NCBI GenBank assembly: GCA_024137785.1
Contig: JAHRHZ010000110.1
Span: 124,001-188,000, forward strand
DNA length: 64,000 bases
Source: Ginglymostoma cirratum
Lineage: Eukaryota
Direction: 5' to 3'
This document shows positions 9,230 to 63,953 of this stretch, piece after piece. Numbering within the stretch: the stretch's first letter is position 1; each line of letters starts with the position of its first letter. The translations under genes were made by a program, and so were the position numbers. Below the pieces are notes generated by a model that saw nothing but the letters and a program-made list of their open reading frames with translations, was not told where the DNA came from and did no database searches.

Positions 9230-9325
9230 TGCTCCGGGTGAGGTTAGAGGTCACAGTCTCGGCAATTCACGCGCCTCTATAACGTCATAGAAGGACTGCG
9301 CGCTCACCGATTGCAACACTGCAGC
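9230..9325 (-). pseudogene. Intron-containing tRNA-Ile(TAT)-derived gene, anticodon TCT
   Basis: Revcomp gctgcagtgttgcaatcggtgagcgcgcagtccttcta[22-nt intron]ttgccgagactgtgacctctaacctcacccggagca. Confidence 0.85.
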
Positions 9326-13275: not shown

Positions 13276-13504
13276 ACTGAAATAACATACCTGGGCTCAT
13301 CTAGGAGTTGTACCCAGGACCTCGCGCATGTTAGCACTACAGAGTACCCTAAGCAAGGGTCATAGCACAAATCCAACAAACCTTTCTTGTTTTTGGCTTC
13401 AAATAATTCACATAATTGCGATGGGAAATTGCGCCATTGTGTGTGGGGATGTCCAGGGTAGGTTGGTAAGCTATGCTAAATGTGGGTTGATGAGGATTAG
13501 CGGC

Positions 13505-13758
13505 GTCCCTCTTTTATACATGACTCTGGACGAGAATGGTCACCGTTTCATATCGGGCTCTGGGGTATAATGTTTACTGTTTTATGTTGGGCTCTGTGAC
13601 AGCATGTTCACTGTTTTACATCGGACTCTGTGGGAGAACTTTACTGGTTTATGCTGTGCTGTGGGGGAGAGTGGTCACGGTCTAACATCATGCACCGTGG
13701 CCGAATGTTCACTATTGTATATCGGGCTCTGGGGAGATGAGTCACTGGTTTAAATCGA
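13505..13758. repeat. Degenerate ~33-bp minisatellite, about 7-8 units
   Basis: Unit like cactgttttatatcgggctctgtgggagaatgtt repeated head to tail. Confidence 0.8.
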
Positions 13759-14319
13759 ACTTCATTCTACTCCTCCTATACCTTCACGTGTGTGATATGT
13801 TTTGCAACAAATGCCTGAAGCCCTTCAATCCAAACAAAAATGAATGGCAAGCTGAATGTATCTTTAAGATTCGGTGACCAACTAATGCTTTGTGTCTGTG
13901 AGAATGCATATTCCAATAAAGAAAATACGAGCTCTACGACATTTCTGGGATTTGCATTTTCACATTGGAATATGATTCGGTCCCTTGATCACACCAGAAT
14001 AACTTTCCGGTGTAAGTGTAACATGATCAGCACCGGACTGCAGGGAAAATGCACAAAGCCAAGTAAGCAGCGCAAGAGATGATACCGTGCAACATATTTA
14101 CAGTTATTAAGCCTGTGATGCAAAATAAGTGGCTCCGAAAAAAAATCCTTCGTCTGGAATGGTAAGCAGATTTATAATCCGAGAACGGCAGATCCCATTG
14201 CGAACTTTTTCCACAGGCAGTCCATGTACGAGCAACATTATCATATTTCCTTTCACTTTACCTGTCTTTCTGCTTAGCCAGTCAGTATTCCAGCGAAGAT
14301 TTCCACTTCTGGGCAAGAG

Positions 14320-31883: not shown

Positions 31884-31979
31884 GTTCCAGTGACGCAATC
31901 GGTGAGCGCGCGGTCCTTCTGTGACAGTATAGAGGCGTGTGAAATGCCGAGACTGTGAGCTCCAACCTCACCCGGAGCA
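31884..31979 (+). pseudogene. Intron-containing tRNA-Ile(TAT)-derived gene, anticodon TCT
   Basis: gttccagtgacgcaatcggtgagcgcgcggtccttctg[tgacagtatagaggcgtgtgaa]atgccgagactgtgagctccaacctcacccggagca. Confidence 0.88.
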
Positions 31980-32717: not shown

Positions 32718-33208
32718 AGAGCAGTGTAGAAATTTATTAAACCTCCCAACTAATCTTTCTCCCTGTTATGAAGTCGAGGTGACGTTTGAATTTCTGTAGG
32801 AACGAGACCCCTTTCACGATCTCCTCTCAGTGAATGTCACCAATGTCCCAGCCTCGTCAGAGAAGGGGAAGTTGAAATTGTCCCAACAGCTGCTTATGCC
32901 TACCGTCTGGTTTCCCAAACCCACCGACCCAATCACTGCAGCAGCTGTGAATAGCAAGGAAACAAAACAAATCATCCAGATTCACCTTCAAGAAACTTTA
33001 GAATCTCTTTGGGATATGAAATCAGAGGAGAATGAAGGGTGAAATGTCCGAATGTACAGAGACAGTTAAGGCACCATTACCATCTTTAAGAGGCTGGGAC
33101 TTTGACTCTCATGTTCTCGGGGACATGAACTGATCCGTGACATTGAATGGATTCCATCAGAACTGCTTTACCTTTACGATTGCCCCTGTCAAGAACAATC
33201 AATCCTGA

Positions 33209-33280
33209 TTTCCTGACCGGGAATCACACCCAGGACGCGGAGGTGAAAGTGTCAAATCCTAACCACCAGGCCACCAGAGT
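33209..33280 (-). pseudogene. tRNA-Glu(TTC) pseudogene
   Basis: tttcctgaccgggaatcacacccaggacgcggaggtgaaagtgtcaaatcctaaccaccaggccaccag. Confidence 0.88.
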
Positions 33281-34190
33281 TGAGGTCAGAAGGACGTGAA
33301 TTGTTTCATAATGATGCAGATTCTGACTTCTTGTCTCTTTCAAAATAATCAAATAGTCGAGTATTTTTTTATAGCCCCTTCGATCTCCGTTTCCAGAACT
33401 TGGCCTGTAGCCCTGTATTCTCTGACGTTTCAAGTGTTCATCTCAATAATATTTTCCCTGTGACGTTTTAATCTCAAAGGTTACAATAAATGGTACTGAA
33501 GTTTGAGACGGTAAAACTGTGCTCTTGTCCCCGTCGGGGAACTGAACCTCATTTTCACCCACAAACGGAAGCAATCAGACACATTTCCCCAAAAGTGACA
33601 GAGGCGTCAAGAGAGACCAACCCCCAGAAAGCAAGGATTTCACCCACCTGACTTATATTGTTCAATTTCAGATTTAAACATCAGAGTCTGTTTACAGCAA
33701 ACCAGAAAATCATTCGGTTGCTTCCCTGTTTGTCTTGCCCATTTTTTTCTCTTCACTCTGCAATTTATACTGCTCCACCTCATTCTTCCTGCCAAACTGG
33801 AACATTTCTCACATCAGCTGCTTCGGAAAGATCTTTCTCAAACACCTGGAAGGACAAACAGGAATATGGTATTTCAAAAGCATTTCTGGCTGATAGAGGA
33901 AATGACCTGATGTTATTAATACCGTTGCATCAGGAATAATTTCAAACTACATTTAAAGAGATCCTTTGGATGTTGGATGCAGCAGGTGGTGAAAATTCTC
34001 ACAGGACCAAGAAAGAAATGAATTCACGGCCATTCAGTGATTCACCAAACTACAGACCTAACACTGCAGGGATAGGTGTCCTCTGAGAGAGGGTTGCCTG
34101 CATTAGAAACTGCAATGTAATAGACGACTGGATAGCTTGTGCATAATAGACCAAGACAATGTAAAAAAAAAGTGTCGGTGGACACGCTGT

Positions 34191-34262
34191 GTTTCTGCGG
34201 TGTAGCGGTTATTACATTTGACTCACACCGCTGCTCCCTCATTATCTGAACAAGGCGTGTTT
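34191..34262 (+). pseudogene. tRNA-Val(CAC) pseudogene
   Basis: gtttctgcggtgtagcggttattacatttgactcacac; 3' half decayed. Confidence 0.75.
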
Positions 34263-34797
34263 TTCCCACTTTTCCATAAACGCGAACAGAGTTCATTTTT
34301 ATATTGCTGTTCTCATCACAAAATCTTACTGCTTCTAACTTGGAGATGGGGTATTGGGTAGAAAGTTTCCAAAGACAGGGAGAATCTGCTGCAGCCGTTG
34401 CCAAATTTAACAAAAGCTTTTACGACCCTTTTATATGAGAAAAACCGTTCGAGAGAAACGAGTTTCTGTAAATTGCATCTCGGGCTGGGCAGAAAGCCGC
34501 TGATTGAAGCTGCAGTGGCCGCTTTCTGCTGGTAGCTGGGAATGGGAAGAGGGGTCAAATCCCGCTGCTTGTCTCTGTCTCACTCTGTGTGGAGCAAGGG
34601 AAGAGAGAGTCTTTGATGGTTGTATTTTGAATTCAATCTCGTCTTGGATTTTGCCTGCGTTACCTGGCAGATCTTGACCCAAAGCAACCGAAGTACTGCA
34701 TCTGCATGGCATCGAGCTAGTATCTTTTCAACTTACATTCTGATGCTGATCCGTTGAGCCACGGAAACGGACGTCAACAAACTATGCAAAATCCCCT

Positions 34798-34978
34798 GAT
34801 GTGGAGGTGCCAGTGTCGGACAGGTGCAGACAAAGTCTGTAATCACGTGACACCAGGTTTGGTCCAACAGGTTTATTTGAAAACACAAGCTTTCGGAACC
34901 TCACTCATACATCAGGAGTTAGTGAGAGAAGTGTCAGACACAGAATTTAAAACGAAAAGATAAAAAGGGTCAGACCAC
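34798..34978 (-). mobile_element. Short Penelope-derived repeat (paralog at 62125-62296)
   Basis: gtggaggtgccagtgtcgg...acaccaggtttggtccaacaggtttatttgaaaacacaagctttcgga. Confidence 0.75.
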
Positions 34979-35433
34979 TCTCTGATTGGAGAGTACGGTA
35001 TCACAGACTGCTGCTTGTCCCTGTCCCTGTCCCACTCTGAGTGGAGCCGAGGTGAAGCATTTGTGGTGCTGTATAAGTCCAACCTCATCATAGAGGTCTA
35101 GCGGGTGAGAAGGAGATACGTGGTCCATATAATTGTTTGATCTGAAACTGCTGAAGCCGCGTACCTGGGTGGTCTCGAGCTACAGCCCTTTCAGTGACTG
35201 ACCAATTGAGACGCAAAACTGGCGCCAACATGACATGCAATGTCCCCAAGCAAAGATCTGACGATGTACTGTGCAGCTGGATCTCTCAAGAGTTTCAGGA
35301 CCTGTTGCTCATTTTACCGCTTTCTTAAGCGAAACTGTCAGAGGCCCAAGGAACTGCAAACACCGACAAGAAAAGAAGACATCACCTTCTTAACATAACC
35401 CAGATTCAAACTAGGGTATAACACAAGCAAATC

Positions 35434-35516
35434 TAGCAGCAGTGGGACTAGATCCCACGACTCAACAGAGGTGGGAAGTTTAAATCCTGCACCTGAGAAC
35501 TCTCAGCCAAGCTACT
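35434..35516 (-). pseudogene. tRNA-Leu pseudogene
   Basis: tagcagcagtgggactagatcccacg...taaatcctgcacctgagaactctcagccaagctac. Confidence 0.75.
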
Positions 35517-36559
35517 GCTTGAAGGCCACCTGCATGATACCTTCATAACTAGTGTATGCAATGAATTAGAATATTAATCTCAAGAAACTTAGAGCTTTTT
35601 TTAAAATTCTTCCTTTGGATGTGAGTTCTTGAGCATTTATTACAACTTGTAAGTTGCCCCTGAGAAGATGTTGGGGACCAATTTGTTGCAATTCGATTAA
35701 TCTGACCAACTAGCCCGAAACTCACTGAAGGAGCTCTTCAGTCAACATTTCAATCATCCTCCACTTGATACCTACAGAGAGGCACTCAGGTATATCCACT
35801 GAGAGCGAAGAAGGTCTGAGGAGTGACATTAACTCAGAAACTAAGGGTGTCTCTCACTTAGCGAATGATTGAAACATTTTGGGAGAGCAACATTCATGAA
35901 AGTTTCGAATTAAGGCGAGTTGTAATTGTTAAAACAGACCTGTTGTGTGGGTTTTCCAAACGGCAAGCAGCTGATTCAGACCAGTTAGCACCCACAATGA
36001 GCCTTCGAGCTCCAACTCTTGTTAAAGATCCCATGTGCTGTTTTCCAAGATTTCATGTCCCTTGTTTTTCCTCCTCTTTGACTCTAAAGCCTCTCTTCCA
36101 TGTTGTTCCTCGATCTGATGTCTGACTGGATCTCGAGCTCTGATGCGAAAGGTGAACTCACACTCTACTGATTCTGCCAGAATTACTGTGACCATTTTGT
36201 TTTCAAACGCTTTGCAAGTCACCTTCCTTCAGAAAATATGCACAAAATAAATAAGGCATTATTCCCTGACCAGGGATCGTATTGTATCGAGACGAAAACA
36301 CGAGAGCTTCCGGAACATAGTTCTGAATTCTTGCAGATTGCCCAACATGATTTCACATCAGGCACTTTTCCCCCAAGACGCAACCAATGACTGACATGAT
36401 GGAAGTGAATGGATCATTGTCAACTATGTGGATGACACAGAAATAAGTAATAAGCTAAATAATGAGTCAGAACTCAATGGTCAACATGTTTATTTGAAAT
36501 CAAAAGCATTCGGAGAGATGCTCCTTCGTCAGGTGTCAGAATTCAACTTTAATGTAGCC

Positions 36560-37140
36560 AATATTTCAAATAGAATGTACAATGATTGTGGAAAGGGATT
36601 GTTATAGTTATACAAGGTACAGCAAGGGTACAGTGAGCAGCTTTGGAACCACACCTAAAGTAAGGTACATTGGCGTTGGATTAGTGCAGTGAAGGTTCAC
36701 CGCATTCTCTGGTGGGTAGAGGAATTTTCGTGTGAGCAGATATTGAGTAGGTTGGGCCTCTACTCTTTGGACTTTAAAAGAATGAGTGAAGACGGCATTG
36801 AAAAAGTTAATATTCTGAGTGGCCTTGACAAGATAAATGTGGGCCTGATGTTTTCTGTATGGAAGGGTTCAGGGCCAGAAGGCATCATCTCAGTCTGAGC
36901 AGTCACTCACTTTGGACAGATACAAGGAGGATTCAATTTTCTCTCAGAGGCGATGAATCTGTGGAATTCTTTACGACAGAGTTAGGCTGTGTCGGTAAGT
37001 ATAATCAAAACTCAGATAGACATTTGTAATTATTTAGGATATGAAGGATTATGTGGATAAGGCATGCAAATCGTGTCTCCAGATTATCAGATTATCGAAG
37101 ATTTCATGGAATGGGGAACGGATAGAATGGACCGTATGAT
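36560..37140 (+). mobile_element. CR1 3' fragment (paralog 59660-60230, inverted)
   Basis: gtgcagtgaaggttcacc...gttgggcctctactctttgg...ttctctcagagg...gtggaattct. Confidence 0.75.
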
Positions 37141-37942
37141 TGACTGTGGCTATGCATCTTATTCAATACGTCAAGCTTATCCGTTCCAATTATTTGTTTT
37201 TTTTTCAATTTACCCACTCTCTGATTCTCTGCCTACTTCTGTGCCGAATTTAACTCAATATCCCTCTGTCTGTCGAGTTATCAGATTAATTAGCTGCTTG
37301 GTGTAAACACAGACTGATGATGAATTTTATCTGGAAAGCTTTATCTGGAAAGTAAGGAGTGGGAATGTCAGACAGAAAGTCATAAGATTACAGATGGCAG
37401 GAAAAATGAAAGAGGGTGCTGATCTTCCTGTTTCTCAAAGTATGAGTTACAAGAGTGTTCCCAGTGCCCATTATTTTCTTCCACTCTTCCCACTCTTGTG
37501 AACGTTGTAAACCTTTGGAAAGGTGCATATTTTAACACATTCAAACTGTGAGGAAAGGGCTTTATTTTCTTTATTTCTTAATAATACTTGTAAACACGAC
37601 AGCTGTTCCACTTCGAACAATGAGCGAAATCATTCTCCAAAGTGAAAATCTAAGTTCCAGAAAAGTTGTCGAGCTCATAGTTTCTTTATCGAAGCATAAC
37701 CAAATACAACTTATCACAGATTCATTACATTTGTTCCTCGACCAAGTGTCACGATGTAGATTCAGCTTTGCATTGATGCTTGTTTGATAAATGGGCTTTC
37801 GGCATCTGATGGGAAGTTGATATTGTAACCGGGCATACCCGAATAGCTAAGAAAATGTACGGGATAGGGATCCTCGAAGCCTTTCCCTGCGCGTTCGCTG
37901 TTGTTTTGTTACAGGAGCAACATCGGAAAATGTCATATATGA

Positions 37943-38024
37943 GCAAATAGCTCATTGTGGTCTTCGGCGCTGGATTGAGGTTCCAGTCTCTGAGGAGGTG
38001 TGGGTTGTGTGGAAGCATGGTGGG
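37943..38024 (+). pseudogene. tRNA-Leu-derived pseudogene, anticodon GAG
   Basis: tggtcttcggcgctggattgaggttccagtctctgaggaggtgtgggtt. Confidence 0.75.
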
Positions 38025-38833
38025 GATGATCTGCGTTTAAGTGGAACGCAACGAAAGATGTTGGACAGCACAGATGCTGCATTGGGTCAGCGTCCAAAAT
38101 GTGTTCACTTGGTGTAGTGGCATGGAATGTCCCCAGCATGATATCGGCACAAGCAGGCTGCGCTGTTGCTTCATGTTACAGGCAACTTACGTTGTTCATC
38201 TTTTTCACTGAAAGCGAGTGGAGATTGTCATACCACTGCTGCTGTGAAATCAAATCCTGCATTAATTCTAATCACAGTTATTTGCTGTGGTGGTGAAAAG
38301 GAGGGTAATTGCGAGGTGAAATTTTGCTAAATTTCCCTCATCTCTCATCTCCTTCATTTCTGTTCTGGAGAAGAGAACTAATGAGACGCCTTCTCGATAC
38401 GCTGCAATCGTTGCCGTGCAGGCACACCCGCATTGTTGATAAGAAGGGAAACCCAGCCTCTTTGAGACTGTGATTGCGAATCGACACTTTTCATGGGTCA
38501 TTCTAATCCTGTTTTTTGATTCCTTATTCCAGCATATTCCAGAAAGTGGTGTTGGACTAAAATGCCAGTATAATCGGTAGCGCAGTTTGAAAGTGCCCCA
38601 CTACCACTTGTGCGAGTGGTTCGTGACACAAACAAGTCGTGGTGTGTCACAGACAGCACTCATGCTTTGGTGTGTCTGCCACTACGTTCGCCTTCTCATT
38701 TTTGCTTCGGTTGCGCTTTAAGACCTGTCTATTTTGGGCTTCGTTCGATTCGTGAGAAGTTAACAAGGTTATTTTTTGCAGCCAGTAAACCCCCCTGACC
38801 GCAGTCATCGGGGTTAAAGGCGAAGGACCCCTT

Positions 38834-38907
38834 CGTCTTTGGGTGGACTCAAACAATCAACATCTCAGATAATAACTGAACGCACTAACCGACGGCGCCA
38901 CAGAGAC
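38834..38907 (-). pseudogene. tRNA-Asn pseudogene
   Basis: cgtctttgggtggactcaaac...gaacgcactaaccgacggcgccacagagac. Confidence 0.85.
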
Positions 38908-38959
38908 AGGGGTCCAGTGGCAACTGCGAACAAACAATTAATTACGGGGTCAGCAACTG

Positions 38960-39425
38960 TCGCGATGTCAGGGTGGACAGCGCGAAAAGGGACACCTCGG
39001 TGCACGTCGTCCATGCCGGCCAGATATCCAAAACTAATTTAGCCTCGTTTGCTAGCATTTGGTCCTTATCCCTCTTAACCCTTCCGATTCACGCACGCAT
39101 CCAGATGCCTTGGAAATGTTGTTAATTTATCAGGTTCCACCATTTCGTCTGAGAGATCAATGCATACTTGCACCACCTGCAGCACGTCGAAAACGCACCT
39201 CAGGTCGCTTTTATATTTCTGCTGCTCACTTTACTTATACGCCGTCCAGTTTTGGATCGCCCACCATGTGATAAAGACCTTGACTACTCACCCTTTCCAT
39301 ATCCCTGATGATTTTGTAAACTTCTGCCAGGTCGTCCCTCAGCCTCCGACGCTCCAGGAAAAGCTGCCCCAGCCTATTCGGCCTCGCCTTAGAGTCCGAA
39401 ACGTGCAACCCTGGCAACATCCACG
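38960..39425 (-). mobile_element. CR1 3' fragment (paralog 57320-57770)
   Basis: Minus ORF RPNRLGQLFLERRRLRDDLAEVYKIIRDMERV. Confidence 0.8.
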
Positions 39426-44573: not shown

Positions 44574-44669
44574 GCTCCAGTGGCGCAATCGGTCAGTGCG
44601 CGGTACTTATCTGATTGAATGGAAGCGTGTGCAATGCTGACGTTGTGAGTTGGAGCTTCTCTTGGAGCA
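44574..44669 (+). tRNA. Intron-containing tRNA-Ile(TAT), damaged B-box (probable pseudogene)
   Basis: gctccagtggcgcaatcggtcagtgcgcggtacttatc[22-nt intron]atgctgacgttgtgagttggagcttctcttggagca followed by gtttt. Confidence 0.88.
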
Positions 44670-45196: not shown

Positions 45197-45271
45197 GGGC
45201 TCAAGCAGGATTGGAACGTTGGACCTCTCACAGCCTCCTCAGCGACCCTCACACCTCTACACCAACGAATA
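45197..45271 (-). pseudogene. tRNA-Pro(AGG) pseudogene with 3 extra nt after position 37
   Basis: Revcomp ttcgttggtgtagaggtgtgagggtcgctgagga[ggc]tgtgagaggtcc...tgagccc. Confidence 0.75.
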
Positions 45272-46049
45272 GTTTCATCGAGCATCAGCCTTCTGTTATA
45301 ATCGGGTTGACCCTCAAACAGTGATCTTTGAATTGTGGAGACAGTTTTCAATTTTTGTATGATCCTGAGGTGTGTAATAACACCTTTCAACAGGCTGCTT
45401 ACATTTAAAAAAGCTCAGTTCGGGCAGTGAAAGCAGCAATGAACAGATTTTTCCCATTCTGCCTCTGGTCCCGGGCTGCTGCGTCTTGCTCCTTTCGCCG
45501 AACACCGGGGTGTCTTCAATGGCAGATGGATCAAACCATATCCCTCCACGGGCACGCAGTGCTTGGGAATGGTATGCGTTTTGCAGCTTCTTCTTGAACA
45601 CTGGAAGGGTCAAGATGCAGAAGAGGTAGAATCAGACGTCAGGAAATTATAAACGACGATTGGGAACTTTCATGAAATGACATTAATCGGAGACAGAGAG
45701 AAGGATTCAGAGCTGCTGGAAAAGAGAGGAGTCAAAACTGGAGACCATTACCTTTAGAAACGTTATACGGGATGTTTCTGCGCAACCTGTGTGGATTTCA
45801 GGATTTCACTTCATGCAGCAATCTTGCAGAAAGTCTTTTGCAAAGCGGATTTCGGCTGCTTTGTTTTGACAGTGTAGGGATTAATATCTGACACCAACAG
45901 TACAGATTAAGAGAATCCAAGTGAAACAATCAGTCACTGTGAGTCATCCCCAACGTCCCTGAGCTGCGGAGCTGCAGACAGTTCAAATCGGAAGGGAGGG
46001 TTAAAAATGAGCCATTGTTTCTCACTCGCCTGCTCTGTCACAGAGACAA

Positions 46050-46175
46050 TGAACAAAATCAGAAGTCAGATGACACCAGGTTATAGTCCAACAGGTTTAT
46101 GTGAACTCATATGCTTTCACAGCGCTTCTCCTCCATCAGGTGAAGTGCCACTTTTCACCGGCATATCCACATCAC
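46050..46175 (-). mobile_element. Short Penelope-derived repeat
   Basis: cagaagtcagatgacaccaggttatagtccaacaggttta...ccatcaggtg. Confidence 0.75.
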
Positions 46176-47319
46176 AGAGACAGGTATAGTGATGTCATAA
46201 ACCAATGGCGTCATTGCTGTGCAGGATGAAGCCGTTTAGCCCATCGAGTCCACAGCGATTCTCTGTCACTTTTATCTCTCCGTGGTTATTCATAATCGGT
46301 AATATCCGTCCTAATCATGGTGAACTGTATCTGTGTCGTGATGCTGTCGCCGATCCTCTTGTCATTCACAACTTTTCATTTTCTGAAACAGCTACTTTCT
46401 GAAACAGCGCGGGGAATTACTGCAGGGCGTCCTTCGCTTGTAAAACACTACAACTGATTTTTTTTCAAATTCAACACTTTATTCCTGCGATCTCAGAGAA
46501 CAGTTTTAACAAATACGACCATCGCAGACCGACACAGAACAGGAGAAGGCCATTCAGAAACTCAGATGCGTGTCACCTCACTTGCGTAAACTTGGCCCAT
46601 GTATCAATGTGAGATTTTTTTTTCAGATACACGAACTTACGGGAAGCTGATCAAAACTCATCAAAATGATGAGATCTGAATTCGATGAGATCGAGTTCAG
46701 TCTGAGATCCCTGAGAGTGCAGTGAATATATTGTGCACGGGGAAGAAGGAAGCAAGTTTCAAACAACCCTTACCCATAGTCAACAGACATCATCACTGGT
46801 GGTGAAAAGTCCTCTGTAAATGGACTCTCTTTATCTTTAATGTTCTAAAATCCCATTTACCAGTTTACTGATCCTCACCTGTGGAAACTGTTTCTCACTG
46901 TCTAGCGCCATGAAATCTCCATTTAACCTTCTTTGCTGTAAACAGAACAATCCCGGCCTTTTGACTATCTCCATAAATCTGAATTCCCTCAGCCCCGGGT
47001 ATGATGAAGCCTGAAGATTGCAACGAGATGTTGGGAACAAAATTCAGTTGGTAGGTGGAAACTTGGTAAGAAAACAAAACAGAAACCCAATCTCCAGCTT
47101 AACGAATCTTTCAAAATTTTCTCTGATCCATGTGGAAACAAATTGTATAATAATCCATCAATGGAGAGAACCCGGTGCCAGGAGAAGGGGCAAACAGCAC
47201 CCTCTCGGGAGCAGGGAGACAGATTGAGAAGAAAATATCCTTGAAATTCTTTGCTGCTTCGATTTCCCCGAACAAAGTGGAACGTAATTCACTCTGAAAG
47301 GGGTGCCACCTTATTGGAT

Positions 47320-47400
47320 GGCTCGTTGGTCTGGGGGAATGATTCTCGCTTCGGGTCTTATATGCTCGAGAGCCCCCGGGTTTAAAGCCCAGACGAGCCC
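47320..47400 (+). tRNA. tRNA-Pro(CGG) with 9-nt intron-like insertion at 37/38 (probable pseudogene)
   Basis: ggctcgttggtctgggggaatgattctcgcttcggg[tcttatatg]ctcgagagcccccgggtttaaagcccagacgagccc. Confidence 0.88.
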
Positions 47401-47689
47401 AGATTTCTCATCTTCACTTTCACTTAACTACCCGACCAGCTTTCGGAAAAATAAGGCCAGTCGAACATTATAGTGAACACAACGCAGAGAAACACTTGTT
47501 CAAAGTGATAAAGAGTGTTTCCGATGTTTGCTACGCAATCTGAATGATTCCAGAGATCGCAAGATCTGCAGGTGCTGTAGACAGAGACGCTACAGTGTGG
47601 AGCTGGAGAAACACAGCAGGTCAGGCAGCACAGGAGGAGGAGAAGAGTCGACGGCTTGGGCCAAGATCAATCATCAGAATGAAGTCTCC

Positions 47690-48140
47690 GCTGCATTCTT
47701 GCTCAATTATGTATGTGTGAAAGTTCAGGAAACTGGGGCAGAAAGTGACTGGAGACAGTACTGAACAGGGTAGCTTGAATGGTGACGTGTGTTGAGAATG
47801 TTAGCAATAAAGATAGATTGGAAAGTTGAGATAGTTCTCCTTGCAGAAGGGAAAACTGGTCTGATTAAAGCTTTCCAAGTTGTGAGGGGTATGAGCAGAG
47901 GAAATAAGGGAGTGAAAATGCTCACACACCTGGAAAGATCGAGACCGATTAGGCAGGGATTTAAAGTCACGAGGAAAAGAAGTAAGAATTACATGACAAA
48001 GAATGTTTTTATGCAACGACTAAGTGTATCTGTAAATCCCTGTCTGACTGTGACAAGATTCATGCCACACAAAACGGAATTCGATGGTTCTGTTAAAAGC
48101 CACAATATGCAGAGTTACAGGGAGAAGGCAAGTAAACGAT
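47690..48140 (+). mobile_element. CR1 3' fragment
   Basis: Degenerate GLIKAFQVVRG...QGFKV...KNVFMQR, RT C-terminus. Confidence 0.7.
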
Positions 48141-48432
48141 ATTAAAACAGACACTCATGTACTTATTGCGGAGACCTGGCGCACCCAAAGCGAAGGCGAG
48201 CTACATGGCTTCTGTCTGTGTTTTGACAAATTTTGTGATTCTGAGTGGATTCACAGCTCGACCAACAGACCGTGGGAACTTAAGCAAAGGTAATATTTAC
48301 ACAAGTGTGACATTTCTAAGCAACAGAATATTACATAACATCAGTGAAGATCATTTGACATCATTCTTTAAGGTACATGCCACACACCGGATGAAAAGCT
48401 GAGTACATGTTGAACAAGGCAGACGCGAGGAC

Positions 48433-48504
48433 AACAGAGTAGTGCAGCGGGAGCGTGCTAGGCCAGTACTCCGGCGATCAAAATCTCGAAACCATTCTCT
48501 GCTA
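48433..48504 (+). pseudogene. initiator tRNA-Met pseudogene
   Basis: aacagagtagtgcagcgggagcgtgctaggcc...tcgaaaccattctctgcta then tttt. Confidence 0.82.
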
Positions 48505-48826
48505 TTTTCTAAAGGCATGTGGTGTTATGTCCTGCACTGTGTGTTTTGATCAGGTTTCCGCTTCCCATAGCTTCATGTGCCTGAAATAAAATCTCATATT
48601 GATACACTGGCCAAACTTACACAGGGGAGGTGACATGTTTGTGAAGGTCTTCTGCTGTTCTCTGTCGTCTGCTCTGAACTGAATTGTAAAACCTCTTATC
48701 TGAGATGGGAATAAACTGGGGAAGTTGAAACACATCAGGCGCAGTTTTTTTCCATTCCTGGCAGTAATTCCCCACGCCGTTTCAGATGTGAATGATCAGA
48801 GGATCAGCATGTCGGAGACAGCATGG

Positions 48827-49125
48827 CAAGGCACAATGGTTCAATGGTTAGCACTGCTGCCTCAGAACGCCACAGACCCCGCTTCTGTTCTGCCCTCGGG
48901 AAATCCTCAATGTGTGGTTTGCATATTTTCCCCGCTTCCTGCAGTTGCTCTGGTTTCCTCCCACAGTCCAGCGATGTTCAGGTTTCTGGATTGGCTGGGC
49001 TCAATTGCCCGTAGTGTTCGGCGATGTGTGGGTTCTGGGAGGAATGAGATTGGGTGGGATGCTTTGAGGTGCGTTGTGGACTTGTTGGGATGCAGGATCT
49101 GTTTCCACACTGGGTATTCTATGAG
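48827..49125 (+). mobile_element. HE1-type SINE
   Basis: ggcacaatggttcaatggttagcactgctgcctcagaacgcca...gctctggtttcctcccacagtcca...gtttccacactg. Confidence 0.85.
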
Positions 49126-49904
49126 CATTTCGGTGCAGACACCACTGTTCGGGAGATATATTATTGATACTTCGGAGAAATACAAGCGATTTAGAGTCGC
49201 CGTGACTCAATAGGCTGAATGGCCATTGGCTGATGACTTCACACTCCCTGCCTTTGAGACGGAGCGGGTGAGGGCGAAACAATAGCTTATTTCTAACCCT
49301 CCCTTCCGCCTCGTGCTGTTTGCAGCCCGGCAACTCAGGGCTGTTGGGGACGTATCTCAGTGAATGAGTGTTGCATTCAGATTCTGTTAATCTGGGACTG
49401 TTGGTGTCAGATATTAACTCCTGCTCTGGATGCAGCAAAGGAACAGACTCCCGCGTTGCCAAGGTGTTATTTGCAGGGCTGTTGTGTGCAGAAGAATTCT
49501 GAACACCAACACAGGCGGCACAGAAATATCCCATTTTAAGTTGCTGAAGGGACTAATCTCTAGTTTTGTGTTCTGTCTTTCTCAGCAGCTCTCCAAGCTT
49601 CTGTCTGTCTCTGATAAATGTCATTCGACGGAAGTTCCAAATTGTTATTTATTATTTGCTGCACAAGCCGCATTCCATCTCTCTGCCCCATCCCTCTTCC
49701 AGTGCTTGAGAGGGAGCTGTAGAGCATATCCCAACACTGCCTGTCCGAGGAGGGAAATGATTTAATGCATCTGCCAATGGAGAGAACCCTGCCCCAACGG
49801 AAGGGACAAATTGCACCGTCCCAGGAACAGGGAGACAGAGCAAGAAGATGCTCTTTGCTGCTTTAACTGCCTGAAGCAACGGGGAATAGTAATTTTGTCC
49901 AAGC

Positions 49905-49995
49905 AACATGTTCAGATCTGTTATTACACACCTCTAGAGCAGCTCGAACTTGAACTCTGGTCTCCTACATCTGAGGTAGGAACACTATCACTGCC
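49905..49995 (-). mobile_element. Short tRNA-derived SINE
   Basis: Revcomp gcagtgatagtgttcctacctc...ccagagttcaag...ctagaggtgtgtaataaca. Confidence 0.55.
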
Positions 49996-50038
49996 TGAGT
50001 GGCATCTGATTTATTGTCAAGTGGGGTTTCATCATACT

Positions 50039-50123
50039 GGGTCGTTGGCCTTGTGGTCTGATTGTCACTTCAGCTAGATGTCGTCACTGCGAGAATTTGC
50101 AGGTTTGAATCCTGTATGAGGCT
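50039..50123 (+). pseudogene. tRNA-Pro-derived pseudogene with 13-nt intron-like insertion (anticodon CAG, probably from CGG)
   Basis: gggtcgttggccttgtggtctgattgtcacttcagc[tagatgtcgtcac]tgcgagaatttgcaggtttgaatcctgtatgaggct. Confidence 0.8.
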
Positions 50124-57002: not shown

Positions 57003-57098
57003 TGCGCCAGCAGAGAGGTGGACTCACAACTTCGGCATTACACACGCCTCTACACCGTCATATAAACACTGTGGGCTAACCGACTGCGCCAGTGGAGC
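57003..57098 (-). pseudogene. Intron-containing tRNA-Ile(TAT) pseudogene
   Basis: Revcomp gctccactggcgcagtcggttagcccacagtgtttata[tgacggtgtagaggcgtgtgta]atgccgaagttgtgagtcc. Confidence 0.85.
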
Positions 57099-57319: not shown

Positions 57320-57770
57320 CGTTCTTGCCAGGGTTGCGCGGTTTGGACTGTAGGGCGAATCTGAATAGGCCGGGCGAAATTTCTTTGCAAGGTTGGAGGA
57401 TGACGACTTCGAGAAGTTTTTAAAATCATGAAGGTTATGAACAGGGTGAATGGTCGAGGTATTTTTTCAACGACTGGGCGAGTACAAAACTGCAGGGCAT
57501 ATATTTAAGGTGAGAGGGGAAAAATGAAATGGAAACAGAGGGGCATTTTTCTTGCAGAAGGTAGTGTGTGAATGGAATGAACTAACAGAGGAAGTTCTGG
57601 AGGCTGGTGAAATGACAGCATTGCAAGGGCATCTGGACGCATGCATGAATCAGAAGGGTTTAGATGGACAAGGGCCAAATGCTGGTAAAATGGGTTTAAA
57701 TTAATTTGGGATATCTGGTCAGCATGGTGCACCAAAGCGTCTGCTTTCGTGCTGGACATCCTGACGACGC
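57320..57770 (+). mobile_element. CR1 3' fragment
   Basis: gttcttgccagggttg...gaagtttttaaaatcatga...gggcatatatttaaggtgagaggg. Confidence 0.8.
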
Positions 57771-57823
57771 CACAGTTGCTGACCCCAAGTTTAACCATTT
57801 GTTTGCACATCTAGCTGGAGCCT

Positions 57824-57896
57824 GTCTCTGTGGCGTAATTGTTTAGCACATTCAGCGGTTCAGTGAAAGGTTGGTTGCTCGAACCCACCCAGAAGC
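57824..57896 (+). pseudogene. tRNA-Asn(GTT) pseudogene
   Basis: gtctctgtggcgtaattgtttagcacattcagcggttcagtgaaaggttggttgctcgaacccacccag. Confidence 0.87.
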
Positions 57897-58740
57897 AAAA
57901 GGGCTACTTTGCTTTTAACCCCGATGACCATTCTCCGTGACAATTCCTTCGTGAGAATTTTGGCTGCAAGAGGATAACCGTGTTAGCCCCTCAGGAATCT
58001 AACGAAGCGCCAAACAGGCAGGTCTTAACGGGCAACCAAAGCAGGAATTACAAGGCGAATGCAGTTGCGGTCACACCAAAGCATGAATGCTGTCTGTGAG
58101 ACGCCTCAACTTGTCTGTGTCACGCACTGTGGGCGAAAATGGCCGCGGGTCAATTCCAAACTGCGCTTCCAATTATACCGGGAGTTTCGTCCAACGCCAC
58201 TTCCCGGAAAGTGCTCAGATAAGGCAAAAAAAGAACAGAGTTAGAATGACCCATGAAAAGTGACGATTAGCAACACAGTCTCGAAGAGCTGGGTTTCCCT
58301 TCTGATCCACAATGGAGGCGTGCCTGCACGGCAATGATTGCACAGGATCGAGAAGGCTGCTCATCAGTTCCCTTTTCCTCTACAGAAATAAAGGAAATTA
58401 GAGAAAATTAACAAAATGTCTCATCGAAATTACTCTCCTTTTCGCCACAACAGCAAATAACTGTGATTTGAATTCATGCAGGATTTGATTTCACAGCAGC
58501 AGTGGTATGACAATCCCCATTCGCTCTCAGTGAACAGGATGTGCAACGTAACTTGCCTGGAACATGAAGCAGCAGTGCAGACTGCTGTTCACGATATCAT
58601 GCTGGGTGCATTCCATGCCACTGCACCCTGGAAACATGACTTGGACGCTGACCCGATGGATGTTCTGCGCTGTCCCACATCAAAGACCAGTTTGCCAGCA
58701 GCAAAGCCATTTGGTTGCGTTCAACTTAAACGCACTCGTC

Positions 58741-58822
58741 CCAACCATGCTTCCTCACAACCCACCCCTCGTCAATGATTGAAACCTCAATCCAGCGCCT
58801 AAGACCATGATGAGCCGTTATC
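58741..58822 (-). pseudogene. tRNA-Leu-derived pseudogene, anticodon GAG
   Basis: aacccacccctc...gattgaaacctcaatccagcgcctaagacc. Confidence 0.7.
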
Positions 58823-59659
58823 TCAGAAATGACATCCTCCGATGTTGCTATTGCAACACTACAACAGCGAAGGCACAGGGAAAGGATTCGAAGATCCCTA
58901 TCCCGCTCGTACATTTTCTTAAATGCTCAGGTATGCCTGGTTACAAAATCAATTTCCCACAAGATGCTGATAGCCCATCCATCAAAACAAACAACAATAT
59001 AAAGGTGAATCTCTGTCGTGAGACTTGGTCGAACAACAAATATAATGCATCTGTGAGAAACTGTATGTGGTTCTGCTTCGGTAAAGAAAATATGAACTGT
59101 ATAGCATTTCTGAAACTTAGATTTTCACTTTGGAGAATGATTTCGCTCATTGCTTGAAACAGGGCATTTACAAGTCGCATTTACAAGTATAATTAAGAAA
59201 TAAAGAGAATAAAGGCCTTTCCTTACATTTGAACATATGTTAAAATATGCACCATTCCAAAAGTTTACAACGTGCACAAGATTGGAACCAGTGGAAGACG
59301 ATAAAGGGCACTGGCACATTCTTGTAATTAATATATTGGAGAAACAGGAAGATCTTCCCTTTTTACTGCCATTTGTAAACTTATCACTTTCTGCCTAACA
59401 TTCCCATTCCTTGCTTTCCACTTAAAGCTTGAATTACCATCAGTCTAAATTTACACCAAGCAGCTACTTAATCTGATAACTCGACAGGCAGAGGGAAGTC
59501 GACTTAAATTCGAGACTGAAGCGGGCAGCGAATCCGAAAGTAGGTAAATTGACATCAAATATGACAACCCAGAAAAAAAAAATCAAATAGTTCGAACGGA
59601 TAAGCTTGACGCATTGAATAAGTTGCAGGAGCCACAGTAAATCATATGGTTCATTCTAT

Positions 59660-60230
59660 CCACTCCAAAATTCCACGAGATCTTGGATAATCTGATAATC
59701 CGGAGAGGCGATTTCCATGCCTTGTCCACTTAATCCTTCATACTCTTAATCATTAAAAATTTATATTTGAGGTTTGATTATACTTATCGACCCTCCCTAA
59801 CAGCCCTCTGTAGTAAAGAATTCCGCAGATTCATACCCCCTGAGAGAAAATGAATCTTCCTCGTCTCTGTCCTAAGTGGGTAACTCCTCAGACTGAGATG
59901 ATGCCTCTGTTCCTAAACTCTTCCACACGGAGGAAACATCCTCCCCACATGTAGCTTTTCAAGCCCCCTAAGAATATTAACTGTTTCAATGCAGTCGTCA
60001 TTCATTCTCTCAAACTCCAATGGGTTCAGGCCGACTCAGTCTCTCCTCACATGAAAATCCCTCTACACACCAGAGAAAGTAGTTAACCTTCCCTTCACTG
60101 ACCAAATGCTAACGTATCTTTCTTTAGATGTGGGTTCCAAAGCTGTTCACTGTATTCTGGCTGTAAATTGTATAACTGTAACAATTCTTTTCTATATTAA
60201 TTGTCTATTTTCTTTGAAATACAGGCTGTA
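59660..60230 (-). mobile_element. CR1 3' fragment
   Basis: Inverted paralog of 36560-37140. Confidence 0.75.
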
Positions 60231-60997
60231 TTAAAGTTGAAATTCGTCACCTGATGAAGGTGCAGCTCTCCGACTGCTTTTGATTTCAAATAAACCTGTT
60301 GTACTATTGACTTCTGACTCATTATTTAGCTTCTTAATTATTTTTGTGTCATCCACATTGTTGATAATGATGGATCACTTCCATCATGTGAGTCATTGGT
60401 TGTGTCTTGGGAGGGGGGGGTAAATGATTGATGTGAAATGATGTTGAAACTCCCATGATTCACCAAACTGGAAGAATTCAGAATTACGTGCCTGATGCTG
60501 TAGTGTCTTCGTCTCGACTGCAAAACCGTCCCTGGTCAATGAATTTTGTCTTACTTGCTTTGTGCATATTTTCTGAAGGAAGGTGACTTGCAAAGTGTCT
60601 GAAAAATATATGGTCATACTAGTTCTGGCAGAATCAGTGTACTGAGAGTTCAACTTTCACATCAGAGCTGAAGATCCCAGTTAGACAATAGATCGAGGAA
60701 TGACACGGAAGAGAGGCTTTGGAGTGAAAGAGGAGGAAAAGCGAGGGACGTGAAATGTTGAAAAGCAGCACATGGGATCTGTCTCAAGAGTTGGAGATCG
60801 AAGGCTCAATTGTGGGTGCTAATTGGTCATATTTTCTGCCTGCTGTTTGAGTGGACTCACACAGCAGTCCTGTTTTAACAATTACAACTCGCTTCAATTC
60901 AAAACGTTCATGAATGTTGCTGTCCCAGAATGGTTCAATTATTCGCCGAGTGAGAGACGCCCTTGGTTTCTGGGTTATTGTCATTTCCTCAGACCTT

Positions 60998-61293
60998 TAC
61001 ATAGAAGCCTTACGATGTGGAAACAGGCCCTTCGGCTTAACAATCCACACTGGCCCTCGGTGTATCCTACCTCTATAACTCACCTAATCTACACATCGCT
61101 GATCTCCACGGGCTATTTAGCATGGCCAATCCACCTAGCTGGCACATCTTGGGACTTTGCGAAGAAACCGGACAACACCCATGCAGACGCAGGGAGAATG
61201 CGAAAACTCCGCAGAGAGAGTCACCCGACGGTGGAATCAAACCTGGATACCTGTTGCGGTGAGGCAACAGTGCTAATCGCTGAGCCACCATGC
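60998..61293 (-). mobile_element. HE1-type SINE, present only in the right arm
   Basis: Revcomp ggtggctcagcgattagcactgttgcctcac...ggtttgattcc...gcggagttttcgcattctccctgcgtctgcatggg. Confidence 0.88.
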
Positions 61294-61583
61294 TGCTCAG
61301 TGTGGGGACATTTGAGTGCTCCTCTGTCGGTATCAAGTGGAGGATGATTGAAATGTCGATTGAACTGCTCCTTCAGTCAGTATCGGACCAGTTGGCCAGA
61401 TTGATCCAATTGCAACAAACCGCTCCCCACCATCTTCTCAGAGGCAAATGGGGCGTTGTAATAAGTGTTGAAGTATTGGCGTCTTGGGGAAGAATTTTAA
61501 AAAAGAGGCTGGAAGTTTCTTCACGCTGATAAAATTGATAAATGTTCTTCGGTTTACTGTTAACATGGTCATGGCTATTTTGC

Positions 61584-61664
61584 TGCTTCAATTTTGAGTG
61601 GTCAAAGTTGCTGGAATTAAGCTCCATTATTTAATGAGGTGTGGGTTCAAATCCCACTGAAACG
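61584..61664 (+). pseudogene. tRNA-Leu pseudogene
   Basis: gagtggtcaaagttgctggaattaagctcca...gaggtgtgggttcaaatcccact; B-box intact. Confidence 0.78.
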
Positions 61665-62124
61665 TGTATGACTTGTGATGTACCCGAGGAGGAAGCTGGG
61701 AAAGGTCAATTTTGTAACGTCTACTTTTCCTCTGAGTGTTTATAGCTCCTCGGTACTCTGACAGTTTCGGAGATGAAAGCAGTAAAATGGGCAACAGGTA
61801 CTGAAAACAGTGAGTGCTCCAGCTGTTCAGTGCCTCCTCAGCTCTTCGCCTGGGGACTTTGCATTCCATTTTGGCGCCAGTTTCTGTGTCTCCATTGGCC
61901 AATGGCTGAAATAGCAGTGGCTCAAGACCACCCAGGGAAACTACCTTGTTTCAGATTGAACAATTATACCAAACACGTACTTACATTTCACCCACGAGAA
62001 CTCCATGATGAGTTTGGATTTAAACAGCACCATCAATGAGTCACCTCGACTCCACTCGGAGTGGGACTGGGAGAGGGAAAAGTAGCAGGTTATGACACTG
62101 TATCCTCCAATCAGAGAGTGTTGT

Positions 62125-62296
62125 GGCCCTTTGATTTTTACTAATAAATTTTGTGTCTGACACCTCTTTCACTAACAACTGATGAAGAAGTGAGGCTCCG
62201 AAAGCTTATGTTTTCAAATAAACCTGTTGGACTATGACCTGGTATCGTGTGATTTCTGACTTTGTCCGCTCCAGTCCAACACCAGCGCTTCGACAT
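62125..62296 (+). mobile_element. Short Penelope-derived repeat with hammerhead core
   Basis: ctgatgaagaagtgaggctccgaaagctt...aaataaacctgttggactatgacctgg. Confidence 0.75.
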
Positions 62297-62420
62297 TCGG
62301 GGATTTAGCACAGTTTGTTGAAGTTCGTTTCTGTGGGTCAATGGATGATCATGACGATGTAAGTTGAAAAAGACCATATGCTCCAGACGAACTCTGCTCA
62401 CATTTATCGAAAAGTTGGAA

Positions 62421-62492
62421 AATCACAACTTGTTCAGATAATGAGGGGACAGCGCTGTGAAGTGGATGTAATGACCACTACACCGCAGAAAC
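62421..62492 (-). pseudogene. tRNA-Val pseudogene
   Basis: gatgtaatgaccactacaccgcagaaac; paralog of 34191. Confidence 0.72.
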
Positions 62493-63389
62493 ACAGCGGG
62501 CCCACTGACACTATTTTTAACACTGTCTTGCTCTATTATGCACAGGCCATCCAGTCATCGATTACATTGCAGTTTCTAATGCATGAGACCCTCTCTCAGT
62601 GGACACCTATGCCCGCAGTGTTGTGTCTGTAGTTTGCTGATTCACCGAGTGGCCGTGAGTTCATTTCTTTCTGGAGCCTGCGAGAATTTTCCCAGCTGCT
62701 GCATCCAATATCCAAAGGAACTATTTAAGTGTCGTTTGAAATTATTTCTGATGCGATAGTTTTAACACCACCTTATCATTTCCTCCACCAGCCAGAAATG
62801 CTTTTGAAATACCACACTCGTGGTTGTCCTGCCAGGTGTTTGAGAGAGGTCTTTCGGAAGCAGCTGATGTTCCAGTTTGGCAGGAAGAATGAGGTGGAGC
62901 AGTAAAAATTGCGGAGTGCGGAGGAAACAATGAGGGAGTAACACGGACAGGGAAGCGGCCGAATGATTCCTATCTTTACTGTAAACAGAGTCTGATTTTA
63001 AAGTCTGAAATTGAACGATATAAGACAGGTGGGTGAAATCCTTGATTTCTGGGGGTTGGTCTCTTCTGACGCCTCTGTCACTTTTAGGGGAATGTGTCTG
63101 ATTGCTTCTATTTGTGGGTCAAAATGAGGTTCATTTCCCCGACGGGGACATGAACACAGTTTTACCGTCTCAAACTTCAGTCCCATTTATTGTAACCTTT
63201 GAGATTAAAACGTCACAGGGAGAATATTATTGAGATGAACACTTGAAACGTCAGAGCATACAAGGCTACAGGCCCGGTGCTGGAAAAGGGGATTGGTGGA
63301 CCGATAAAAAATTCAACGATGCGATCATTTTGGAAGAGAAAAGTCAAAATCCGCATCATTAAGAAACAATTCACGTGCTTCTGCCCTCA

Positions 63390-63461
63390 TCTCTAGTGGT
63401 CTGGTGGTTAGGATTTGGCAATTTCACCTCCGCGTCCTGGGTGTGATTCCCGGTCAGGGAA
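63390..63461 (+). pseudogene. tRNA-Glu(TTC) pseudogene
   Basis: tctctagtggtctggtggttaggatttggcaatttcacctccgcgtcctgggtgtgattcccggtcagggaa; B-box mutated as in 33209. Confidence 0.88.
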
Positions 63462-63953
63462 TCAGGATTGATTGATCCTGACAGGGACAATAGCAAAGGT
63501 AAAGCAGTTCTGAAGGGAATCCTTTCAATGTCACGGATAAGTTCATGTCCCCGAGAACATGAGAGTCAATGCCCCAGCCTCTTAAAGATAGGAATGGTGC
63601 CTGAACTCTTTCTGTTCAGTCAGACAGTTCACCCTTCATTCTCCTCTGATTTCAGGTCCCAAAGAGATTCTAAAGTTTCTTCAAGCTGCGGCTGGGCGAT
63701 TTGTTTTGTTTCTTTACTTTTGCCAGGAGCTGCAGTGAATGGGTCAGTGGGTTTGGGAAACCAAAAGGGAGGCATAAGCAGCTTATGGGACAATTTCAGC
63801 TTCCCCTACTCTGAAGAGGCTGGAACATTTGTGACTTTCACTAACAGGAGATAGTGAAAGGGTTCTCGTTCCTGCAGAAAGTCAAAAGTTTCCTTGGCTT
63901 CAGAGCAGGGAGAAAGATGAGTTGGAAGGTGAAATAAATTTCTGCACCAAGCT

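Follow-up and report, generated by a model that had tools for sequence, protein, structure and literature searches.

Decayed tRNAPro genes with anticodon-loop inserts in Ginglymostoma cirratum, probable fossils of a lineage-specific spliced family

We analyzed a 64,000-nucleotide stretch of the Ginglymostoma cirratum genome (positions 124,001 to 188,000 of contig JAHRHZ010000110.1, assembly GCA_024137785.1; hereafter, the window), in which the anticodon loops of four decayed tRNAPro genes contain additional bases. Default runs of ARAGORN and Rfam each called three tRNAs in the window and none of the Pro copies, and the output of ARAGORN with relaxed thresholds was too noisy to be used. References were obtained by searching the GTDB contigs for an animal-type Pro motif, which yielded 12 short loci (L121-L132) with 62 ARAGORN tRNA calls. 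These loci are short contigs in prokaryote assemblies that hold dense clusters of animal-type tRNA genes, and they likely represent host (animal) contamination of those assemblies; all 16 animal-type Pro matches in them are intronless. A gap-tolerant scan of the window was then conducted with 48 distinct intronless genes from these loci; the initial set excluded two genes with introns as well as the L130 Pro calls, and the spliced forms of those two genes joined it later (48-50 references). Against reversed sequence as the null, nothing was found at 0.55 in the first scan, and the maximum in a wider scan was 0.554 of length. As a result, 33 decayed tRNA-like loci were identified at a threshold of ≥0.58. 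Between positions 1127 and 63462 of the window there are thus at least 33 such loci of at least 13 isotypes, none of them clearly intact, which have spread within the window via direct and inverted duplications.

Four of the loci, named here by their first position, derive from tRNAPro (Table 1). The Pro identity is supported by matches to the best reference tRNA at 64, 56, 53 and 51 of 72 positions, compared with the null maximum given above, and a rescan at a lower threshold brought no additional Pro copy in the window above the null (best 0.556 versus 0.554). The preliminary description of this DNA had recognized three Pro-derived copies with inserts; these are real, and the fourth, 13293, had been missed. 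In the latter, G37 is retained, exon 2 begins cleanly, a T4 run lies 16 nt downstream and no CCA is encoded, while the CAG anticodon of 50039 is likely a decayed CGG. All four copies are dead genes: each has 9-21 exon changes, none keeps an intact cloverleaf and anticodon loop, and folding of the whole molecules recovered no cloverleaf.

Table 1. Coordinates of the tRNAPro copies, their inserts and associated features in the window
Feature	Position	Strand	Remark
Decayed tRNAPro(AGG), copy 13293	13293..13382	-	56/72 identity with intact animal-type Pro gene
18-nt insert at 37/38 of copy 13293	13329..13346	-	purine at -3
Decayed tRNAPro(CGG), copy 47320, best preserved of the four	47320..47400	+	64/72
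9-nt net insert of copy 47320	47356..47364	+	leave-one-out exon profile
Decayed tRNAPro, anticodon CAG, copy 50039	50039..50123	+	51/72
13-nt anticodon-loop insert of copy 50039	50075..50087	+	no purine at -3
Decayed tRNAPro, copy 45197, inverted duplicate of 50039	45197..45271	-	53/72
3 nt net extra in loop of copy 45197	45233..45235	-	position ambiguous
Upstream block common to copies 47320, 50039 and 45197	47135..47290	+	flank alignment
Paralogous upstream block of copy 50039	49750..49890	+	flank alignment
~120-nt insertion between shared block and copy 50039	49895..50015	-	A-box-like and B-box-like motifs
Ile-TAT-like pseudogene (isotype assumed), 22-nt insert at 37/38	9230-9325	-	
Ile-TAT-like pseudogene (isotype assumed), 22-nt insert at 37/38	31884-31979	+	
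Ile-TAT-like pseudogene (isotype assumed), 22-nt insert at 37/38	44574-44669	+	
Ile-TAT-like pseudogene (isotype assumed), 22-nt insert at 37/38	57003-57098	-	

The net extra lengths of 9, 13 and 3 nt are sharply defined, because a leave-one-out exon profile peaks at exactly those gaps, with scores of 45-55 at the inserts and ≤18.5 elsewhere in the window, and the three inserts lie where they had first been placed. Their exact register within the loop is less uniform. For the 13293 insert, the best register is 37/38 or the next base, and the insert of 50039 ties at four positions, 37/38 among them. In 47320, the best fit is 1-2 nt downstream of 37/38 (63 versus 62 matches at 37/38), and the extra bases of 45197 tie at seven positions, so that they can be located only somewhere in the loop. 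The earlier statement that all inserts lie one nucleotide 3' of the anticodon therefore holds for 50039, with its tie, and is loosened to +1/+2 in 47320 and to the loop as a whole in 45197; overall, the placement agrees with the 37/38 site of introns of the TSEN type. The same ambiguity led us to discard the idea that 45197 is a clean AGG gene with a 3-nt intron. The lengths of 18, 13 and 9 nt are within the known intron range of 6-133 nt (PMC4090602), and the 3-nt remnant falls outside it.

To set these inserts against the general decay of tRNA loci in the window, we compared the Pro copies with the other isotypes. Locus 31884 was left out before the count, since there was no Ile reference and since an intron is normal in the family to which it probably belongs by sequence, Ile-TAT. 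Loop inserts of ≥3 nt were seen in every Pro copy (4/4) and in 0 of 28 non-Pro, non-Ile loci (Fisher p=2.8e-5), and the difference persisted when the data were collapsed to 2 independent Pro lineages and 12 isotypes (p=0.011). Inserts of ≥3 nt outside the anticodon loop were present in 5 of the 28 loci, indicating that the method is able to see inserts.

The flanking regions record how the copies arose. As first described, the upstream flanks of 47320, 50039 and 45197 are paralogous (local scores 68, 40 and 74 versus null maxima of 24-26). Copies 45197 and 50039 form an inverted duplicate pair with four derived changes in common, two of them outside CpG. This pair alone carries the ~120-nt insertion, which resembles the head of a short interspersed element (SINE) in motifs read by eye, is absent from 47320, and has left a remnant upstream of 45197 as well (45330-45410); because of it, the distance from the shared block to the tRNA is ~100-120 nt greater in these two copies. 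Over the proximal 300 nt, the flanks of 13293 bear no relation to those of the remaining copies, and one weak 40-nt match to 45197 is located ~0.8-1 kb upstream (score 36 versus null 27). Downstream, no shared 3' tail was found in any of the six copy pairs, whose scores fall within the null or at its edge, and the 3' flanks of the four copies contain no encoded CCA or A tail. These observations indicate genomic genes, and an origin as a SINE family or as retrocopies was rejected for want of a common tail, CCA or poly(A).

Decay has been markedly unequal among the three paralogs. Exon changes number 9/71 in 47320, compared with 21 and 20 in the two copies whose flanks are paralogous to its own (p=0.0098), and it has only 0 and 1 derived changes in common with them. 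Had a lethal insertion preceded the duplication, all three copies should have decayed alike. The slight damage to 47320 and the few shared changes suggest that this copy stayed functional for a long time with its insert and was thus likely spliced, as an unspliced loop insert of 9-17 nt would be incompatible with continued selection on the gene.

Eukaryotic tRNA introns are located at 37/38, are cut by TSEN, which uses a ruler and an anticodon-intron (A-I) pair, and the exons are joined by RTCB in animals (PMC10275265, PMC4090602, PMC10485636). The intron-bearing families in human are Tyr-GUA, Ile-UAU, Arg-UCU and Leu-CAA (PMC10275265), in agreement, for human, with the four families that the preliminary description had listed, and conservation among human introns is limited to pyrimidine 32 and the -3 purine with which it pairs (10.1101/2020.08.03.234229). 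The Pro copies resemble these families in having a short insert separated from the anticodon by a single base, in the possible pairing of a -3 purine with pyrimidine 32 in 13293 and 47320, and in insert sequences that differ among members. They differ in isotype and in being pseudogenes; Pro is outside the four families that humans splice.

The longest insert, that of 13293, has the clearest intron-like features. It can pair at U32:A, U33:A, A34:U and G35:C with a 3-nt 3' bulge, a four-pair run with a chance probability of 0.0024 for Watson-Crick pairs only and 0.031 including G-U, and the same run is present in both intact animal intron tRNAs retrieved (a Tyr-type gene in L128 and a Leu-CAA gene in L127). 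In 47320, a single A-I pair (pyrimidine 32 with the purine at -3) can form. A length of 18 nt ranks second in frequency in a set of 92 distinct real Pro introns from non-animal genes. A tandem duplication was rejected as the source of the inserts, the best self-matches being 3/9, 4/13 and 5/18.

For 47320, pairing with the loop extends over six to seven of the bases that follow the insert. A post hoc model takes these bases as intron: the ancestral intron was 17 nt long, the remnant extends to ~47371, and 8 nt were lost across the 3' splice site. A single slip of 8 nt, between direct repeats of 5 nt each, would account for both the short insert and the two mismatches at 38-39. The modelled intron has an A-I probability of 0.80 (7/1000 shuffles were as high), and copy 45197 agrees with it at 4/5 of the final five bases of the insert (p=0.016). 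Because four of its pairing bases could simply belong to exon 2, the model is partly circular as well as post hoc, and we hold it as a prediction only.

Taken together, the four copies are probably fossils of a lineage-specific spliced tRNAPro family. The preliminary description had proposed descent from such a family on the basis of three copies, and this is still the best reading, strengthened by a fourth, independent copy and by the unequal decay of the paralogs. What has changed is the status of the three inserts first named, which are probably net remnants after deletions and not intact introns. Under this reading, the anticodon-loop inserts would be what is left of a true tRNA intron of ~17-18 nt. 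Working ancestors would have been transcribed by RNA polymerase III, their intron cut out by TSEN and their exons sealed by RTCB to give an ordinary animal tRNAPro. The ancestral family may have spanned at least the AGG and CGG anticodons, and the shorter inserts would reflect later deletions. The intron may have been gained in this lineage and then spread through gene duplication, a view suggested by the intronless state of other animal-type Pro genes and by the lack of a similar non-animal Pro intron.

Several observations weigh against a spliced family. The net lengths of the Pro inserts vary (18, 13, 9 and 3 nt), while 22 nt were kept in 4/4 of the Ile-TAT-like copies, and, at the background rate, only ~4% of 18-nt introns should have suffered a deletion of ≥3 nt. 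Deletion promoted by hairpins or repeats may have shortened three of the four inserts, or the working genes may truly have differed in intron length. The inserts show no significant homology to each other (global p=0.21, 0.15 and 0.65; local p=0.08-0.67), and that of 50039 lacks the -3 purine and with it the A-I pair. Folding predictions for the present 18-nt insert of 13293 favour a different register by 5 kcal/mol, leaving an A-I probability of 0.003 compared with 0.83 in both intact animal controls. This last objection is weak, because 86/92 real non-animal Pro introns also fall below 0.05 and 6/54 single changes restore the A-I pair. Two D-loop changes outside CpG are common to 50039 and 13293 and absent from 45197, the twin of 50039. 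These could hint at a common damaged ancestry; recurrent change is likelier, yet the full independence of 13293 is weakened. Finally, an animal-type 5' end was found in 0 of the 124 intron-bearing Pro matches listed from 20/64 metagenome parts, and an intron-bearing animal-type Pro gene in 0 of 16 cases in the GTDB contaminant contigs, shark DNA being expected in neither source. The animal-type Pro motif had no matches in viral contigs.

Three other explanations were weighed. The one that survives best, while still improbable, is an insert-bearing Pro family that was amplified and transcribed by RNA polymerase III, was poorly or not spliced, and was kept alike by recent copying or conversion instead of selection. 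Cartilaginous fish are indeed rich in tRNA-derived repeats, with more than 9500 Ala-like ones in the elephant shark (PMC8450103), and neither the unfavourable A-I prediction for the present 18-nt insert nor the insert without a -3 purine would be surprising in such a family. Against it, these copies have no common tail and two anticodons, the full-length insert shows A-I-type complementarity in the right register, and eukaryotic TSEN works largely by a ruler mechanism and is loose in its demands on introns (PMC4090602, section 5).

A dead copy multiplied by duplication is less probable again. Here, a single chance insertion would have killed one Pro gene, which was then segmentally duplicated and eroded. 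Duplicated segments abound in the window, flanks are common to three of the four copies, the insert lengths vary as in free decay, and the D-loop changes shared by 50039 and 13293 fit a damaged ancestor. Such an origin accounts poorly for 47320, whose damage is under half that of its paralogs with almost no derived changes in common, or for 13293, with its unrelated proximal flanks, different anticodon and insert that fits the A-I register. The weakest explanation, which we regard as very improbable, is that independent chance indels or footprints of tRNA-targeting transposons arose privately in each pseudogene: the lack of significant homology among the inserts would fit it, and Dada transposons do target tRNA genes in fish (PMC3706591), but the background chance of a ≥3-nt insertion in a 7-nt window is ~0.016 per copy and 4e-6 for three, no loop insert occurred in the 28 other loci, and transposon footprints were rejected because the inserts show no flanking duplication of the kind left by Dada (6-7 bp); the Dada paper also names no tRNAPro target in its main text.

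Returning to the spliced-family reading, Pro introns are otherwise represented in our data by non-animal genes. Among the 124 matches listed from 20/64 metagenome parts, which may be fungal to judge from their exon sequences, introns are mostly 15-20 nt long and 115/124 have a purine at -3. The Pro copies resemble these genes in isotype and junction context and, in the case of 13293, in insert length and -3 purine, and differ in their animal-type exons. The best match of the 13293 insert to the 18-nt introns among them is only 9/18, which makes an independent gain likelier than shared descent. No report of Pro introns in sharks or other vertebrates was found in listings and abstract openings of the open-licence literature, which included parts of PMC8450103, PMC9858662, PMC13578239 and PMC11408192, and GtRNAdb may list such genes; the supplements of PMC9858662 and PMC8450103 contain no shark entries. 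In fission yeast, C34 of tRNAPro CGG is methylated (PMC11408192). According to a bioRxiv preprint, sharks have clustered tRNA genes, and loci with introns (tRNAscan-SE score ≥50) are present in excess; its main text names no isotype for them, the words "Pro" and "proline" having 0 occurrences, and its Fig. 3A and supplements may list one.

Spliced tRNA families have been treated as fixed in the vertebrates studied, with four in human, and we know of no mechanism by which a vertebrate lineage gains a tRNA intron. If the spliced-family reading is true, the shark Pro family would be a datable intron gain in a vertebrate lineage and a natural test of TSEN substrate needs and of the role of introns in anticodon modification, and it could supply an identity for the surplus loci with introns in sharks. 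Chemically, nothing unusual would be involved, and all four copies described here are dead. A more far-reaching extension, to which we give even odds, is that sharks have a fifth spliced tRNA family. Working Pro genes with at least two different anticodons would then contain an intron of 17-18 nt, the 3' part of which changes in step with the anticodon; proline decoding would be partly or mostly dependent on TSEN and RTCB, and the family would explain much of the shark excess.

Other features of the window were also recorded. Four paralogous pseudogenes carry the 22-nt inserts mentioned above and are presumably Ile-TAT-like; their inserts are 14-19/22 identical pairwise. Two loci that ARAGORN labels Gln (31378) and Arg (31884) look like decayed His and Ile, respectively. 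Long open frames are absent from the window, which has 12 stop-to-stop frames of 130-200 aa. A degenerate short tandem repeat with a period of ~67 nt is located just upstream of 13293 (13524-13761). Direct and inverted duplications are abundant across the window, including an inverted duplication of ~6.5 kb (32724-39417 versus 57325-63947) with 74-85% identity.

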